This document shows positions 1,026 through 22,918 of a DNA stretch of 23,231 bases, one piece after another. A program made the position numbers and the translations under genes. The DNA is from an uncultured archaeon (lineage in GTDB: Archaea; Asgardarchaeota; Jordiarchaeia; Jordiarchaeales; Jordiarchaeaceae), in assembly GCA_964510585.1 (NCBI GenBank), contig CAZECW010000022.1:1-23231 (forward strand), in the 5' to 3' direction. Under the pieces are notes generated by a model. The model was given only the letters and a program-made list of their open reading frames with translations. It searched no databases and had not been told where the DNA came from. Within the stretch, counting starts at the first letter, position 1. Every line of letters begins with the position of its first letter.

Positions 1026-1898
1026 TTGACGGAAAACGAGGAGTTCTACAAAGCCAAAATTTATTCTCTAAACAAGGAGCGTGTTCCCCTAATTGAGGAG
1101 CTACGAAAACTAAGGGAAAGCGCTGAGGGATATAAACAAAAAAGAGATGAGAAAAATAGAGAGGTGCAACTCCTCGCCCAGCAAATAAAAGAGATTCGAA
1201 AGCAAAACGATGAATTCAGCTCTCGGCTAAGCCAAATGAAAATGGAGAAAGAAAAGCTTTACGAAAAAATTAGAGAACTCTCTTCTAAAATAAAGGAGCA
1301 AAAAAGCAAACTGTACTTCATAAGTTTTAACGGCGAACAATTAAAGAAAAAAAGAGACGAACTTGAGTGGAAACAGCAAACAACCCCCCTATCCCTGGAA
1401 GAGGAAAACGTCATCGTCAAACAAATAGAAAAAATGGAAGAAGACCTAGCATACTACGAGGAAAACCTCAAAATACAAAAAACAATAGACCAACTGAAAA
1501 AAGAAATGGAACAAACACGACAAAAAATCATTGACATAAAAAACCACATGCAAGAAGAGTACGAAAAGAGCAAACCCCTATTCGAACAAATAAAAACCCT
1601 AACAAAGAGAAGAGACGAACTAAGAAGCTCCGCAGATACCGACCACAAAAACTACATTGAAGTCTTCCAAAAAATAATTCAATGCGAAAACCAACTCACA
1701 AAAATAGAAGAAGAAATATCACTCTACAAAGCCCAACAAGTCAAAATACAAAGGGAGAGAAGGGAGAGAGAAGCCCAAGAAAAAAGAAAAAAGGAAGAAG
1801 AAATACTCCAAACCAAAGTAAAACAAGCCCAAGAAAAATTAGAAAAGAAAAAACGAGTAACCCTACAAGAACTAAAACTCGCCATGGGCGAGAAATAA
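1026..1898 (+). CDS. Archaeal coiled-coil protein (COG1340-like)
   Basis: About 290 aa of K/E/Q-rich heptad sequence with the LEWKQQTTPLSLEEE motif typical of this family. GGTGA at 1016-1020 lies 5 nt before TTG 1026; the ORF track's GTG 1017 overlaps this SD. Confidence 0.75.
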   Translation: MTENEEFYKAKIYSLNKERVPLIEELRKLRESAEGYKQKRDEKNREVQLLAQQIKEIRKQNDEFSSRLSQMKMEKEKLYEKIRELSSKIKEQKSKLYFISFNGEQLKKKRDELEWKQQTTPLSLEEENVIVKQIEKMEEDLAYYEENLKIQKTIDQLKKEMEQTRQKIIDIKNHMQEEYEKSKPLFEQIKTLTKRRDELRSSADTDHKNYIEVFQKIIQCENQLTKIEEEISLYKAQQVKIQRERREREAQEKRKKEEEILQTKVKQAQEKLEKKKRVTLQELKLAMGEK

Positions 1899-1933
1899 AA
1901 CGGTTCCAACAAAAGACAACGGTGAATTTCAAA

Positions 1934-3409
1934 ATGAAAAAATTTGAGGAACTGGATTCCCTGTTTCACCCCAAAGCCGCAGCTGTGGTTGGCGCAACCG
2001 AAAACCCATTCAAACACGGAAACTGGTACATGCGTTCAATACTAAACAGAGGTTTCCCAAAAGAACATCTATACCCCATAAACCCCAACGAAAAAGAAGT
2101 ACTCGGCATAAAAGCATACCCCAGAGTACAAGACGCGCCAGAACCCCTCGACTACGTCGTAGTGGCAATACCCAAAAAACTAATCAAAGAAGTTGTAAAA
2201 GACTGTGTCGAAGCCCAAGCCAAGTTTGTAATGATTTTCACATCAGGATTCTCAGAAAGCACCTCAGAAAGAGAAGAAGGCAAAAAATTAGAAAAAGAAC
2301 TCCTAGAAATAATACGCGGCACAAAAACCAGAATAGTAGGCCCCAACGGAATGGGTGTCTACTCTTTTGAGGGAAAACTTTCATACCCCTACCTATACAA
2401 TCCCCCACAAGGGGGCACAGTATCTTTTGTAAGTCAAAGTGGAGGACACACTGTTTCTATGGCCAGCTTTGCCGATTTCTGGAACAACATTCGCTTTAGC
2501 AAAATGGTTAGTTACGGCAACGGAATAGATCTGGAAGTCACAGATTACCTAGAGTATTTCGCAGAGGATCCCAAAACCAAGGTTATTAATATTTATGTTG
2601 AGGGGGTTAGAAACGGGCCCCGCTTTTTTAAAGCCTTAAAGGAAGCGACCACCATTAAACCCGTAGTTGTCTGGAAAGGAGGCTGGACTGCGGGTGGCTC
2701 ACGCGCAACCCTTTCACATACAGGTTCCCTCGCAGGTTCAAACAAAATTTGGAGTATGGTGTTGAAACAGGCGGGAGCAGTGCAGGTCTATAGCATGGAA
2801 GAGCTTTGCGATGTAACCATGGCTTTTCTTAGGCTTAATCCCCCAAAAGGGGTAAATACTGCTATTGTGGGTGCGGGTGGAGGCCTAAGCGTGGTTTCCA
2901 CAGACGCATTAGAGAGCGCTGGTTTAAGGGCTCCACCCTTTAGTGAAAAAACTAGGGAAGAATTGGGCGAAATAGTTCCTGATGTGGGAACAGGTATATC
3001 TAATCCCATAGACGCCAGTTACTTTGTCTACTATGATCTAAAAATGTATATCAAAATATTGGAATTGGTGGATAAGGATCCCAACATTGACTTGATACTG
3101 TTACAGCATGAGGTGATGTGGGGAGACAGAAACGAGGAGCTCTTCAAAATAGTCAAAGAAATCAGAGAAAGACTGGAAAAGCCTCTGGTTATCGTTTTAC
3201 ACCCTTCTAGTGGACCTAGAGAGTACCAGCCTGAGACGGAGGCTGAGCGTTTAAAAATTATAAAGCAATACCTAAATGAGGGCTTCCTCATATACCCCTC
3301 AATACCTAAAGCATCAAATGCTGTTTTTAAGGTGATACAGTACTACCAGTTTCTAAAAAATAGAGAAATTCAGAGACCACTGAAGCAGCACTTAATACTG
3401 CTTGAATAG
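1934..3409 (+). CDS. acdA: Acetate/acyl-CoA ligase (ADP-forming) alpha-subunit family, CoA-binding protein
   Basis: LFHPKAAAVVGAT CoA-binding N-terminus, IVGPNGMG, SQSGG, YGNGIDL, VVVWKGG and SHTGSLAG (phospho-His) motifs. True start is ATG 1934 after GGTGA (1921-1925); the ORF track's extension to 1682 is an alternate-frame read of the upstream gene. Confidence 0.88.
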   Translation: MKKFEELDSLFHPKAAAVVGATENPFKHGNWYMRSILNRGFPKEHLYPINPNEKEVLGIKAYPRVQDAPEPLDYVVVAIPKKLIKEVVKDCVEAQAKFVMIFTSGFSESTSEREEGKKLEKELLEIIRGTKTRIVGPNGMGVYSFEGKLSYPYLYNPPQGGTVSFVSQSGGHTVSMASFADFWNNIRFSKMVSYGNGIDLEVTDYLEYFAEDPKTKVINIYVEGVRNGPRFFKALKEATTIKPVVVWKGGWTAGGSRATLSHTGSLAGSNKIWSMVLKQAGAVQVYSMEELCDVTMAFLRLNPPKGVNTAIVGAGGGLSVVSTDALESAGLRAPPFSEKTREELGEIVPDVGTGISNPIDASYFVYYDLKMYIKILELVDKDPNIDLILLQHEVMWGDRNEELFKIVKEIRERLEKPLVIVLHPSSGPREYQPETEAERLKIIKQYLNEGFLIYPSIPKASNAVFKVIQYYQFLKNREIQRPLKQHLILLE

Positions 3410-3449: not shown

Positions 3450-3914
3450 CTATTCTTCTGTGTATGTGCCTATTGACCCCTCAGCCTCCTCCACTGAAAC
3501 CCTTATTTTCATGTTTTTGAGGGGTGACTGTTTTAGCTGTTTATAAATATATTCGGATATTTTTTCCACAGTGGTTGCCTCAATAGGCAAAAGTAATGCG
3601 TCATCCTTGGGGAAGATGTACCTCCTCCTGTTTGCTATAACCTCTATTTCTTTTCCCATCTCCCTGATTTCTACTTCCTTTTCTTTAGTGGGTATCAGTA
3701 TGTGGTGATCCATTTTCTGACAGATATCCCTCGCTACGTTTCTTACATCTAGAAAGTCCACTATCATCTGCTGACTGTTAAGTTTATCGGACTCAATCTC
3801 AATAGTTACCTTATAGTTGTGGCCGTGTATACGCTCACATTTCGGGTGACGAAGGAGGAAATGAGCCGCAGAAAAGTTTAGGTCAGTTCTTTCCACCTTA
3901 AGCTTGTAGACCAT
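3450..3914 (-). CDS. queD: 6-carboxy-5,6,7,8-tetrahydropterin synthase (6-pyruvoyl-tetrahydropterin synthase family)
   Basis: FSAAH, CERIHGHNY (Zn ligands and Cys), IVDF, MDH and TTVE motifs; lies downstream of queE on the same strand. Confidence 0.9.
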   Translation of the reverse strand: MVYKLKVERTDLNFSAAHFLLRHPKCERIHGHNYKVTIEIESDKLNSQQMIVDFLDVRNVARDICQKMDHHILIPTKEKEVEIREMGKEIEVIANRRRYIFPKDDALLLPIEATTVEKISEYIYKQLKQSPLKNMKIRVSVEEAEGSIGTYTEE

Positions 3915-4117: not shown

Positions 4118-5008
4118 TCAGAGTATTCCCAACACTTTATGGGCTTGAATTGATACTGAAATGTCATTTTTATGAAGATACTTTGCCGCGGCTTCAGTGA
4201 ACTGGAACAGTTGTTTTATTGTGGGTTTTTCCCCCACTTCGCCATATGGAGATACAATCTGAATGCATAGGGGGCATCCCAACTTAGCGAGCTCCCTAGC
4301 ATACCATTCAATATTCTCCGATTTTGTTTGGGATGTAACTACAACCTTGGCGAAGGTCTTTGCCTTTGCCTCAACTAAAACCTGTATGGTTTCCAACTCT
4401 CTCTCCACTAGGGCTCTCCAGTCTGAAGCAGCCCCCGCCGTCTCATCTTTAATATCACAGCAGCAGTATTCAAAAAGTTCAGCCACCTTTGAAGCACACC
4501 CAGGTAAAGAACCATTAGTTTCAAGATAGAGAATATAACCTTCTGAGACAAGGTTCTCTGAAACTTCCCTCAGGAAATCCGTTTGAAGTAAAGGCTCCCC
4601 ACCAGTAAATGACACCGAGTGAAGATCCGCAGTTTTCAGTTTTCTCACATAGCTGCAAAGAGTTGCTGGATCTATGGGATTTGCTTGCTCTGCGAATTTT
4701 CCAGTCCCGGGGCTTTCTTCCATTCTAACCTGAGGTGCGTCTGGTTTTTGAGCTCCAGGTGATTTGCGTCTTAGTATGTTCTATAAGATGTCGCACCACC
4801 TGCAGCCCCTAGTTCCAAACTCCCCCATAGCTAGGTTGCAGCCCGCGAATCTAGCGATTCGACGGATGAATAGCTTCTATTCCTCCTATATCTGGCGCTT
4901 TCCATAACACGAGCCGCTGACGCTACCTCCTTCTCCTTTACCTCCCCCTCTCTGGGGGATTTGGTAGGAAGAGAACACCTCAGCGACCCATCCCTTAACC
5001 AAGACCAT
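4118..5008 (-). CDS. queE: 7-carboxy-7-deazaguanine synthase QueE (radical SAM), split by three short introns; join(complement 4961..5008, 4888..4936, 4790..4857, 4118..4762), 269 aa when spliced
   Basis: Exon lengths 48+49+68+645 = 810 nt. Spliced translation begins MVLVKGWVAEVFSSYQGEGGSVSGSCYGKRQIFARFAGCNLAMGEFGTRGCRWCDSPGAQKPDAPQVRMEESPGTGKF and continues with SFTGGEPLLQ, YLETNG and DIK, all QueE motifs. The start is uncertain: ATG 5008, TTG 5002 (5 nt after GAGGTGA) or ATG 5026. Confidence 0.88.
4763..4789 (-). other. Putative BHB intron 3 of queE (27 nt)
   Basis: mRNA CAGGUG-G-UGCG-AC | A-UCUUA-UAGAACAUAC-UAAGA-CGCA-AA | U-CACCUG. Perfect 4-bp central helix UGCG/CGCA, 5-bp intron helix, 6-bp exon-exon helix; contains an in-frame TAG (4781-4783). 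Removal gives W-C-D-S-P. Confidence 0.85.
4858..4887 (-). other. Putative BHB intron 2 of queE (30 nt, phase 1)
   Basis: mRNA AGCG-CC-AGAU-AU | A-GGA-G-GAAUAG-AAG-CUAUUC-A-UCC-GUCG-AA | U-CGCU. The intron helix has 9 bp plus one mismatch; central helix AGAU/GUCG pairs 3 of 4. The unspliced frame has two TAGs. Removal gives R-Q-I-F-A-R-F-A-G-C. Confidence 0.75.
4937..4960 (-). other. Putative BHB intron 1 of queE (24 nt)
   Basis: mRNA UUCC-UACC-AA | A-UCCCCC-AGAGA-GGGGGA-GGUA-AA | GGAG. Perfect central helix UACC/GGUA and 6-bp intron helix. Removal joins the conserved Q|GEG motif. Confidence 0.82.
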
Positions 5009-5042
5009 CACCTCAAAACAGGCCATGTCACATCCTTTTAAA
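5008..5042 (-). promoter_or_regulatory. Candidate TATA box (TTTAAAA, 5042-5036) and SD-like GAGGTGA (5014-5008) for queE
   Basis: The TATA-like element is about 28 nt upstream of ATG 5008, and GAGGTGA is 5 nt upstream of TTG 5002. Sequence resemblance only. Confidence 0.35.
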
Positions 5043-20300: not shown

Positions 20301-21608
20301 ATGATACAAAAGGCATTGGAAAACTACATGCATAAATTTATTGTGGATATCTGCAAAGAAATTGGGCCACGAGAATCGGGCTCAAAGGAAGAGGAACTCG
20401 CAGGAAACAGGGTGGAAGAGGAACTGAAAAAATTCTGTGATAAAACACACCAAGAAGAATTCATCAGCAGCCCCACAGCTTTTCTGGGCTTCATCAGGTA
20501 CGGTTCAATAATGATAATTTGTGGAATCATCCTCTACTGGTTATCCCTCTTAACTGATCTAGGATGGCTTCAAATTGGCACCAATCCCATCGATTTGGTT
20601 TTAATCGGCCTGGGACTAGCGCGAGGCAGTTCCCTTGGCTTGGTTCTCTCACTAATTGCCAGCATACTTGCGGTTTTTGCAGTTAGCTACTTCATTCTAG
20701 AAGTGATGCGCTACAGAGAACTAGTGGACTTTATGTTCCCCAAAAAGAGGTCCAAAAACATCATTGGAACAATAAATCCCACTGGCAAAGTTAAACACAC
20801 CATAATTTTTGCCGGCCACCACGATTCAGCCTACGAATTTAACATATTTTACTACCTAAAGACAATAGGTAGTTTAACAATCTTCATAGGCTACCTTGGA
20901 GTAGTAATCTTTAGCATCGTTAGCGTTTTGAAAACAATCTTTTATTTCCTCCCCCTCAACTTAACCCTAGTCTTTTTCTGGTTCGGAATTTTCTTCCTGT
21001 TCCTAACTCCCATCGCAGCCATCTACATTTTCTTCCACAGCTATAAACCAGTACCAGGAGCCTTCGACAACCTATCCGGAGTGGCCGTGGTGCTAGGAAT
21101 AGGCAAATACTTATCCGAAAATAAGAACAATCCAAAAATATATCCCAAAAACACTCGCATCCATCTAATCTCATTTGCCGGTGAGGAAGCTGGACTACGG
21201 GGATCCAAACGCTACGTTAAAGCCCACTATGAGGAATTAAAGAAAAATAACACTATTTTAATAAACATGGATGGCATAGCAGCAAAGGACTCCGCCGTTA
21301 TATTTGAGAAAGAAACACTAATAGGCGCAAAACACAACCCCGAATTATGCAACACTTTATTAAAAATTGCTCAGGAACAAGGCATAAATGCCCGCCTAGG
21401 AGCTTTACCCTTCGGAGCAACAGACGCCGCAGCCTTCAGCCGCAAAAAACTGCCAGCAACAACAATCGGATCCCACGAACTAAAAGGAAGGCTACCCGAA
21501 TTCTACCACACAAGACTTGACACCCCCGAAGTAGTGGACAAAGAAGCCCTAGGACAAATACTACAAATCTGCCTAGGATACATAAAATACATCGACAATT
21601 TAACTTAA
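20301..21608 (+). CDS. Membrane-embedded M28-family metallopeptidase
   Basis: AGHHDSA, GAFDNLSGVA, GEEAGLRGS, INMDG and YHTRLD zinc-binding motifs, with about four hydrophobic segments inserted. Confidence 0.82.
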   Translation: MIQKALENYMHKFIVDICKEIGPRESGSKEEELAGNRVEEELKKFCDKTHQEEFISSPTAFLGFIRYGSIMIICGIILYWLSLLTDLGWLQIGTNPIDLVLIGLGLARGSSLGLVLSLIASILAVFAVSYFILEVMRYRELVDFMFPKKRSKNIIGTINPTGKVKHTIIFAGHHDSAYEFNIFYYLKTIGSLTIFIGYLGVVIFSIVSVLKTIFYFLPLNLTLVFFWFGIFFLFLTPIAAIYIFFHSYKPVPGAFDNLSGVAVVLGIGKYLSENKNNPKIYPKNTRIHLISFAGEEAGLRGSKRYVKAHYEELKKNNTILINMDGIAAKDSAVIFEKETLIGAKHNPELCNTLLKIAQEQGINARLGALPFGATDAAAFSRKKLPATTIGSHELKGRLPEFYHTRLDTPEVVDKEALGQILQICLGYIKYIDNLT

Positions 21609-21670: not shown

Positions 21671-22918
21671 ATGGTTAAACCGAAAAATAAGTCCCAGACA
21701 CAACCAGTTTTTCCACAATACAAAGGAGTCGAAGAGCTAATCCCCCAAGTCTACTCCATAACCACGTTCGGAAATGTAGGCTTCATTGTCACAGAGGAGG
21801 GAGTAGTGGTTGTGGACACAGCTGTACACCAGTTTGGGGAAATAATTAGAAACGATATTCGCAAGGTTACTGACGCCCCCATTCATTCAATTATCTACAC
21901 CCACGGACACTATGACCACGCTTTTGGTGTTTGGGCTCTGCTAAAAGACGCTGAGGAACGAGGAGACCCTAAACCTAGAATCATCGCCCATGAAAACGTG
22001 GTTAAACGCTTTAACCGTTACCGGAAACTGCAGGGTCAACAGGAATTCATTAACCGCATTCAGTTCAGCGTCCCCGAAGGGACAAGCGCCGTACCCAAAG
22101 AATATCACTACCCGGACCTAACATATCACGACCGCTTAAGCTTTCGGCTCGGCGGCTTAACCTTTGAATTACGGTTTGGGATGGGAGAAACAGACGATGC
22201 CACCTGGATTTGGATTCCCGAGAAAAAAGTCGTCTTCTCAGGAGATTTTCTCTTGTGGTCCTTTCCCAATTTGGGTAATCCCTTCAAGGTTCAACGCTAC
22301 GAAACTGAATGGGCGGACGCCCTAGAACAAATGGCTTCACTCCACCCCCAAATTCTAGTACCGGGACACGGACCAGTCATTCGCGGCGAAAAAATTCAAA
22401 AAGTTTGCCTCAACACCGCCCGAGCCCTACGCTACCTCCACGAAGAAGTTGTGAAACGCTTAAACAAGGGTGCCTGGATTGAGCAGATACTAGAAGAGGT
22501 GCAACTCCCTGAAGAATTAGCCAAAAAATCCTATTTAGCCCCAATTTATGGATGCCCCACATTCGCCATCCACGCTATATACAGACGTTATGCAGGCTGG
22601 TACGACGGCAACCCCTCCCACCTATTTCCCTCAAAGACCGCAGACATCGCCAAAGAAGTTGTAAAACTAACTGGAACAGAAGCATTACTTAACCGAGCTA
22701 AGGAACTAAGAAAAGCTGGAGAAATACAATTAGCACTCCACCTAGTAGACTTCATAATATACAATCCCGAAACTGCAGGTTTAAAGGAGGCTCATGAACT
22801 AAAAGCAGAATTGCTCCAAGCCAAGGCTGAGCAGACAACAAGTTTCATCGCTCGTAACATCTTCTTGAATGGTGCTCGTCGGGAGCGTCATTTTACCCGC
22901 GAAGCAAAGTACCCCTAA
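21671..22918 (+). CDS. Metallo-beta-lactamase-fold alkyl/aryl sulfatase family protein
   Basis: YTHGHYDHAFG, GETDD, FPNLGNP, PGHG and IYRRYAGWYDGNP motifs of the SdsA/Pisa1-like family; no C-terminal SCP2 domain. Confidence 0.85.
   Translation: MVKPKNKSQTQPVFPQYKGVEELIPQVYSITTFGNVGFIVTEEGVVVVDTAVHQFGEIIRNDIRKVTDAPIHSIIYTHGHYDHAFGVWALLKDAEERGDPKPRIIAHENVVKRFNRYRKLQGQQEFINRIQFSVPEGTSAVPKEYHYPDLTYHDRLSFRLGGLTFELRFGMGETDDATWIWIPEKKVVFSGDFLLWSFPNLGNPFKVQRYETEWADALEQMASLHPQILVPGHGPVIRGEKIQKVCLNTARALRYLHEEVVKRLNKGAWIEQILEEVQLPEELAKKSYLAPIYGCPTFAIHAIYRRYAGWYDGNPSHLFPSKTADIAKEVVKLTGTEALLNRAKELRKAGEIQLALHLVDFIIYNPETAGLKEAHELKAELLQAKAEQTTSFIARNIFLNGARRERHFTREAKYP

Follow-up and report, generated by a model that had tools for sequence, protein, structure and literature searches.

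The stretch analysed here, referred to as the window, is 23,231 nucleotides (nt) of DNA from an uncultured archaeon of the order Jordiarchaeales (assembly GCA_964510585.1, contig CAZECW010000022.1), and our subject is a queE-like gene on its minus strand. This gene lies in one frame that runs from about position 5026 to a TGA at 4120-4118, with three in-frame TAG breaks. The version given by gene callers consists of the last 201 codons only (4118-4723), a radical S-adenosylmethionine (SAM) fragment without the cysteine motif. Relative to orthologues that follow the pattern EIFSSFQGEG..GSCYGKRQIFIRFxGCN...CxWCDSP without interruption, the gene contains three extra pieces: one after SSYQ, one within the Phe codon after KRQI, and one after WCD. 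The resulting layout is listed below, where H is the central helix in each bulge-helix-bulge (BHB) structure, h the exon-exon helix, h' the intron helix, and an arrow a predicted cut.

4961-5008, minus strand: queE exon 1, M-V-L-V-K-G-W-V-A-E-V-F-S-S-Y-Q, matching the N-terminus of uninterrupted orthologues.
4937-4960, minus strand: predicted intron 1, 24 nt; H UACC/GGUA, bulges AA↓A and AA↓G, h' UCCCCC/GGGGGA.
4888-4936, minus strand: queE exon 2, 49 nt; GEGGSVSGSCYGKRQI, then base 1 of a Phe codon.
4858-4887, minus strand: predicted intron 2, 30 nt long and containing two TAGs in frame; H AGAU/GUCG, bulges AU↓A and AA↓U.
4790-4857, minus strand: queE exon 3, 68 nt; F-ARFAGCNLAMGEFGTRGCRWCD, carrying the CX11CX2C cluster motif.
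4763-4789, minus strand: predicted intron 3, 27 nt; in-frame TAG, 4783-4781.
4792-4802, minus strand: exon half of the intron 3 BHB; h CAGGUG (4802-4797), G4796 and H UGCG (4795-4792), then the bulge A4791 C4790↓A4789.
4756-4768, minus strand: 3' half of the intron 3 BHB; H CGCA (4768-4765), the bulge A4764 A4763↓U4762 and the exon helix CACCUG (4761-4756).
4118-4762, minus strand: queE exon 4; SPGAQ... to the TGA at 4120-4118, including the 201-amino-acid (aa) open reading frame (ORF) annotated as a truncated 'radical SAM protein'.

The start codon of queE is uncertain, with in-frame candidates at ATG 5026, ATG 5008 and TTG 5002. Positions 4763-4789, the third of the three inserts, are very probably a genuine spliced BHB intron of the queE pre-mRNA. 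We imagine that, as the transcript folds, UGCG in the exon would pair with CGCA in the intron, and that this helix would have on its flanks two bulges, AC↓A and AA↓U, an exon-exon helix and an intron hairpin. The heteromeric tRNA-splicing endonuclease EndA would then cleave after the second base of each bulge, which is where Marck and Grosjean are said to have placed the EndA cut in 2003. RtcB would ligate the exons (GAC↓UCA), probably freeing a 27-nt circle, and the spliced mRNA alone would code for a QueE-like radical-SAM enzyme with the Q-G-E-G and CX11CX2C-D motifs. What we observe directly is the structure itself, its conservation, the restoration of frame in 12 genomes, exons that evolve under purifying selection, and a genome that encodes the enzymes; from these we infer cleavage, ligation and the enzymes responsible.

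The structure at intron 3 is near-canonical. Its central helix has all four pairs in 10 of the 12 sequences compared below and three of four in the other two; h is a helix of 6 base pairs (bp), CAGGUG/CACCUG, and h' has 5 bp (UCUUA 4788-4784 with UAAGA 4773-4769). Excision of 4789 to 4763 joins GAC to TCA and yields C-R-W-C-D↓S-P. The insertion point is thus one codon past the CxxC of the radical-SAM cluster motif, after its last cysteine, where a preliminary description of the window had put it, and the helices, bulges, intron stem, TAG and junction listed there all lie at the minus-strand coordinates it gave. That description had also proposed folding the site: for 4748-4806 on the minus strand, RNAfold gave the BHB as its minimum-free-energy structure, at -22.6 kcal/mol (z = -4.31, equaled by 0 of 200 shuffles), and it persists in a 311-nt context alongside the BHB of intron 1. 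Rfam and tRNA searches around the site, on both strands, gave no match.

The relatives of the window genome are Candidatus Freyarchaeota/Jordarchaeia (Asgard archaea), mostly from hot springs, and include a closed 3.58-Mb chromosome, CP147778, with the locus at 2,125,000-2,126,000. We compared 12 sequences: 11 species genomes of the order, from two families and with the window genome (G000) among them, plus a metagenome contig (L173). In all 12, queE is interrupted at three shared sites by inserts of the following lengths.

Site 1 (nt): 24, 25, 26, 26, 21, 20, 19, 22, 23, 26, 22, 22.
Site 2 (nt): 30 (six times), 29, 19, 23, 19, 19, 18.
Site 3 (nt): 27, 27, 27, 27, 30, 29, 32, 15, 17, 17, 17, 16.

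A single cut rule, a 4-bp helix between two 3-nt bulges, each cut after its second base, frees the three inserts in all 12 sequences and leaves a single open frame of 268-319 aa to the normal stop. The cut positions predicted in the preliminary description thus hold across an intron 3 of 15, 16, 17, 27, 29, 30 or 32 nt. This exact coincidence, in 12 genomes, of cuts predicted from folding with insert boundaries defined by homology is the signal that chance does not provide.

The presence of the insert in 12 independent assemblies, the closed CP147778 included, rules out an assembly or binning artefact or a strain-specific insertion. Such an error might be suspected given that the window comes from a metagenome-assembled genome of 217 contigs with 4.8% contamination, but we give it next to no chance.

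Another reading holds that the insert is translated, with TAG decoded as pyrrolysine or read through, giving QueE a nine-residue extra loop. Some Jordarchaeia are reported to use pyrrolysine, and in the window genome the inserts are all multiples of 3 and their stops all TAG (3/3). However, the window lengths of 24, 30 and 27 nt are multiples of 3 by coincidence; only 15 of the 36 inserts are divisible by 3, and 10 of the 12 sequences have at least one frameshifting insert. Because most inserts shift the frame, they cannot be translated. The stops within them may be TAG, TAA, TGA or none, intron 3 of one genome (G003) being stop-free. It had been claimed from the in-frame TAG that QueE cannot be made without removal of the insert; the need for removal holds, although the TAG is not its sole cause, as the frameshifts in relatives impose it too. 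The window genome showed no PylS (best match, 42 bits against a cut-off of 178), TAG ends about 22% of its long ORFs, and the inserts would fall within the Q-G-E-G motif and beside the cluster motif. Nor do uninterrupted orthologues have extra residues at the insert sites: the spliced window protein aligns with 27 of them from Asgard archaea without a gap at any of the three junctions, WCD↓SP included. A translated insert seems to us barely conceivable.

This type of QueE is present in 77 of 400 Asgard genomes. All 66 copies outside the order are full length and uninterrupted, and a translated insertion, which the preliminary description had named as evidence against an intron, was found in none of these Asgard matches. 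All 11 copies inside the order are interrupted, which implies that the introns were gained at or before the base of the order and have been retained by every species sampled.

Purifying selection acts on the exons, with a ratio of nonsynonymous to synonymous substitution (dN/dS) of 0.05-0.22 in exons 1-3 and 0.08-0.11 in exon 4. This bears on the idea of a queE pseudogene in decay, its three inserts being junk that folds by chance. The three stops in the window frame would agree with decay, as would the output of gene callers and public databases, which give only truncated products of 201-227 aa or out-of-frame read-through. Against it stand not only the dN/dS of the N-terminal exons but also the filling of the same three sites in 12 species of two families, with no further lesion; moreover, the motifs are all intact once the inserts are excised, and a queD-like gene adjoins on the same strand. 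Decay is therefore very improbable.

At intron 3, all 12 sequences conserve the two bulges and helix H, with a U-A pair varying to U-G, and in an alignment of the genus 97.6% of cells are paired, compared to 33-49% with slid partners. The two families build the exon helix from different codons: CAGGUG/CACCUG in the genus (R-W...S-P-G) and GUGGGUGG/CCCCCCAC in the sister family (G-W...T-P-H). The interior of intron 3 is unrelated between the two families, and h' in the sister family has only 1-2 bp. The MAFFT alignment mis-registered the short sister-family intron 3, and the comparison of both families was made by segment table. In intron 2, H has three of four pairs in the window genome and four of four in the sister family, the junction re-forms the Phe codon (U↓UC), and the hairpin h' varies in sequence across genomes with its pairing kept. 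The stem of intron 1 gave the clearest covariation: across the 12 sequences, compensatory changes were seen in 5 of 5 pairs, 100% of cells were paired, and 0 of 500 shuffles reached the covariation score.

As a separate observation, synonymous divergence (pS) between congeners was 0.21-0.50 in exons 1-3 (4790-5008), compared to 0.64-0.70 in exon 4 (4118-4762). The lower values fit a constraint of RNA structure on the exon halves of the three BHBs.

It is worth asking whether the ribosome might skip the insert in translation by hopping, or whether it is removed by machinery other than EndA and RtcB. In favor of a hop, the insert is short, it contains a hairpin, and most genomes have a stop close to where take-off would occur. 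The take-off and landing codons, however, are unmatched (GAC ... UCA), and what is conserved is the BHB, with its 4-bp helix and two bulges on opposite strands, rather than a bypass element. Three hops in succession within 200 nt would be very inefficient, and the lineage is known as a very heavy user of BHB introns. We consider these possibilities highly unlikely.

Several points weigh against a spliced BHB intron at 4763-4789. The preliminary description called the BHB perfect, and all of its elements are indeed present in the minimum-free-energy fold, but the structure departs from the textbook form by the extra exon nucleotide G4796 between h and H. The 5' bulge, ACA, has 3 nt; the 3' bulge, AAU, has 3 nt only with G4796 unpaired, and a U4762-G4796 pair in the minimum-free-energy fold reduces it to 2 nt. 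(In the sister family the third base of this bulge is A, which is unable to pair, and the bulge has 3 nt.) Two genomes (G005 and G009) have a U-C mismatch in H. BHBs this good number 1513 in the genome, compared to 925 in block-shuffled sequence, or about one per 8 kb of strand; structure alone thus proves little. Within the genus the covariation of intron 3 is weak, with one compensatory pair (U-A to C-G, in L173), a result matched by 141 of 500 shuffles, and most pairs are invariant. Homology fits equally well the D↓SP junction and a D↓TP junction in which both sites are shifted by +1. Finally, support for the predicted junction is comparative, not direct RNA evidence. A search of sequencing runs listed no RNA library with the sequence and gave only two runs, from hot springs, that bear a metatranscriptomic label, their word shares being small at 0.10 and 0.04; an exact search of JGI metagenome contigs did not find the exact spliced junction of exons 3 and 4. 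A 17-mer of the unspliced form occurred at 119 loci in public contigs, mostly at random; one of these, L173, is a real additional species.

A possible fourth intron at 4806-4829, in exon 3, which the preliminary description had raised, is ruled out: uninterrupted orthologues share the same long cysteine spacing, CX11-13CX2C.

We next consider the identity of the product. The spliced protein holds E-x-F-S-S-x-Q-G-E-G, the three-cysteine cluster motif and a T-G-G-E-P SAM motif, and is colinear with proteins named QueE by NCBI. An uninterrupted orthologue (L011) matched five NCBIfam QueE models with E values of 1e-13 to 3e-9, its 37-51 bits lying below their cut-offs of 200-300, and Pfam identified only Radical_SAM in the gene. 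The gene is best called QueE-like (7-carboxy-7-deazaguanine synthase-like). Its pathway assignment is supported by the adjacent gene:

3450-3914, minus strand: queD-like gene (6-carboxytetrahydropterin synthase family), directly downstream of queE on the same strand; Pfam PTPS, 7.8e-25.

With the NCBIfam QueD model this neighbor scored 83.1 bits, slightly below the cut-off of 89.25.

The introns also explain a systematic mis-annotation of QueE. The database records recovered for the clade (P0001-P0012) are truncated products of 175-227 aa, except for P0002, which is named QueE and is an N-terminal read-through, out of frame and 264 aa long. With exon 4 as the query, the spliced-form protein was not found among 5.8 billion proteins, the matches being truncated products or the out-of-frame P0002 only. 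Metabolic reconstructions of these genomes would accordingly miss or mislabel genes that bear such introns.

The window genome encodes RtcB and two EndA paralogues, in the regions C157:27039-27287 and C126:19921-20181, one with a catalytic His context (GIDHAP) and the other without the His. By its sequence, the EndA pair fits the broad-specificity (alpha-beta)2 type. A 2026 preprint infers this type for most Asgard genomes (bioRxiv 10.64898/2026.10.13.758758), and another paper reports that 92-95% of the tRNA genes of Freyarchaeia and Atabeyarchaeia have introns, often several and at non-canonical sites (PMC11291895). ARAGORN called only 6 tRNA genes, all doubtful, in the window genome (3.78 Mb, 96% complete). 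So few calls fit heavy interruption of the tRNA genes at non-canonical positions; with these 6 calls alone to work from, calibration of the cut rule on the tRNAs of this genome gave nothing usable.

Similar inserts occur elsewhere in the genome. The pcm gene is split by 32 nt (contig C187, about 67019-67050; H CGCC/GGCG, bulge AC↓A) inside GQTISAPH↓MV, and hypD by 28 nt (C97, about 2593-2620; H CGGG/CCCG, bulges AC↓A and AA↓A) inside CGT↓HE. On contig C4 the HIGH motif of tyrS is split by 30 nt (about 22120-22149), inside EPSG-L-FHLG, and a further short BHB-type insert lies at about 20568-20597. In rtcB an insert of 30 nt with an in-frame TGA (C58, about 3762-3791, plus strand, equivalent to about 1561-1590 of L080) falls between LPD and AHQGYG of the active-site motif, with H CCCG/CGGG and bulges AC↓A and AA↓G. 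It is found in 6 of 6 genomes of the genus, being 29 nt long and frameshifting in G005, and is absent from four genomes of the sister family. Since rtcB carries this insert, the splicing ligase would itself depend on splicing.

Two features of these inserts may be mentioned in their own right. Several have in common a central helix of 4 bp that is rich in GC, with AC↓A after it and AA↓N at the end of the insert, and their placement in conserved motifs recalls inteins and homing introns.

We lean, without great confidence, towards the view that mRNA splicing by EndA and RtcB would be routine in the order. Dozens of housekeeping genes would have BHB introns of 15-70 nt, preferentially in their most conserved catalytic motifs, some with several introns and micro-exons of less than 70 nt, and rtcB would be spliced in one genus. 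Two genome-wide scans for frame-restoring BHBs showed no clear excess over decoy cut rules, a point against the spliced-intron reading of 4763-4789. The first gave 82 hits with the true rule and 83-109 with decoys; the second, limited to GC-rich central helices, gave 517 compared to 437-486 for length-changing decoys, at best a weak excess. In both, gene junctions swamp the signal, the first scan missed pcm and hypD, and no gene count was drawn from them. If splicing is indeed this widespread, gene content is systematically under-annotated in these genomes, and the expression of many enzymes would depend on, and possibly be regulated by, the activity of EndA and RtcB.

Elsewhere in the window, on the plus strand, an ORF of 293 aa (1017-1898) matches DUF7121 weakly, at a score under the cut-off of Pfam. 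It shares 217 nt with the beginning of the next ORF (1682-3409), which is 575 aa long and resembles ADP-forming acyl-CoA synthetases. This overlap may reflect a mis-called start or an interrupted gene.

How does the queE intron compare with known systems? Short inserts in coding sequence that are rich in stops and hairpins and still give one protein are known as bypass elements (T4 gene 60; the byps of Magnusiomyces mitochondria). Those, however, need matched take-off and landing codons, which are absent in queE, and they stay in the RNA. The unconventional splicing of HAC1 and XBP1 mRNA in eukaryotes is likewise non-spliceosomal: small stem-loops are cleaved by an endonuclease, the exons are ligated by a tRNA ligase or one of RtcB type, and a short intron shifts the frame. 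There the nuclease is Ire1, not EndA/TSEN, and splicing is a regulated stress switch.

Among archaea, EndA-type mRNA introns were reported for only two genes in the literature we retrieved: the coding region of cbf5 and one haloarchaeal 5' untranslated region (UTR). In Haloferax volcanii the 5' UTR of HVO_1309 holds an intron that resembles that of queE in making an mRNA the substrate of EndA, which was confirmed for HVO_1309 both in vivo and in vitro, but it lies in an untranslated leader and the reading frame is independent of it (PMC7714728). That paper, from 2020, gave cbf5 as the only other mRNA case. The BHB intron of cbf5 pre-mRNA, in Crenarchaeota (Desulfurococcales and Sulfolobales; Watanabe 2002; Yokobori 2009, PMC2738675), is likewise a tRNA-type BHB intron in an archaeal coding region, conserved at the level of orders and with EndA presumed to act. 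It differs in gene and in host, which is crenarchaeal and not Asgard, and its splicing has been shown experimentally while that of queE is deduced from comparison. Further, queE has three introns within 200 nt, micro-exons of 49 and 68 nt, and introns of only 15-32 nt.

The tRNA introns of Freyarchaeia and Atabeyarchaeia share with queE the lineage, the motif, similar lengths, a presumed (alpha-beta)2 EndA and the occurrence of several per gene (PMC11291895; bioRxiv 10.64898/2026.10.13.758758). They differ in lying in tRNA genes, and the matching passages of either paper do not mention introns in protein-coding genes. A full-text literature search likewise turned up no paper describing a BHB intron in a protein-coding gene of Asgard archaea. 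With three BHBs within about 250 nt, queE offers a compact test substrate for EndA specificity. The queE intron very probably adds to the archaeal BHB introns in protein genes, a case unusual among them for its three introns, its micro-exons and its Asgard host, and is probably part of a genome-wide phenomenon.
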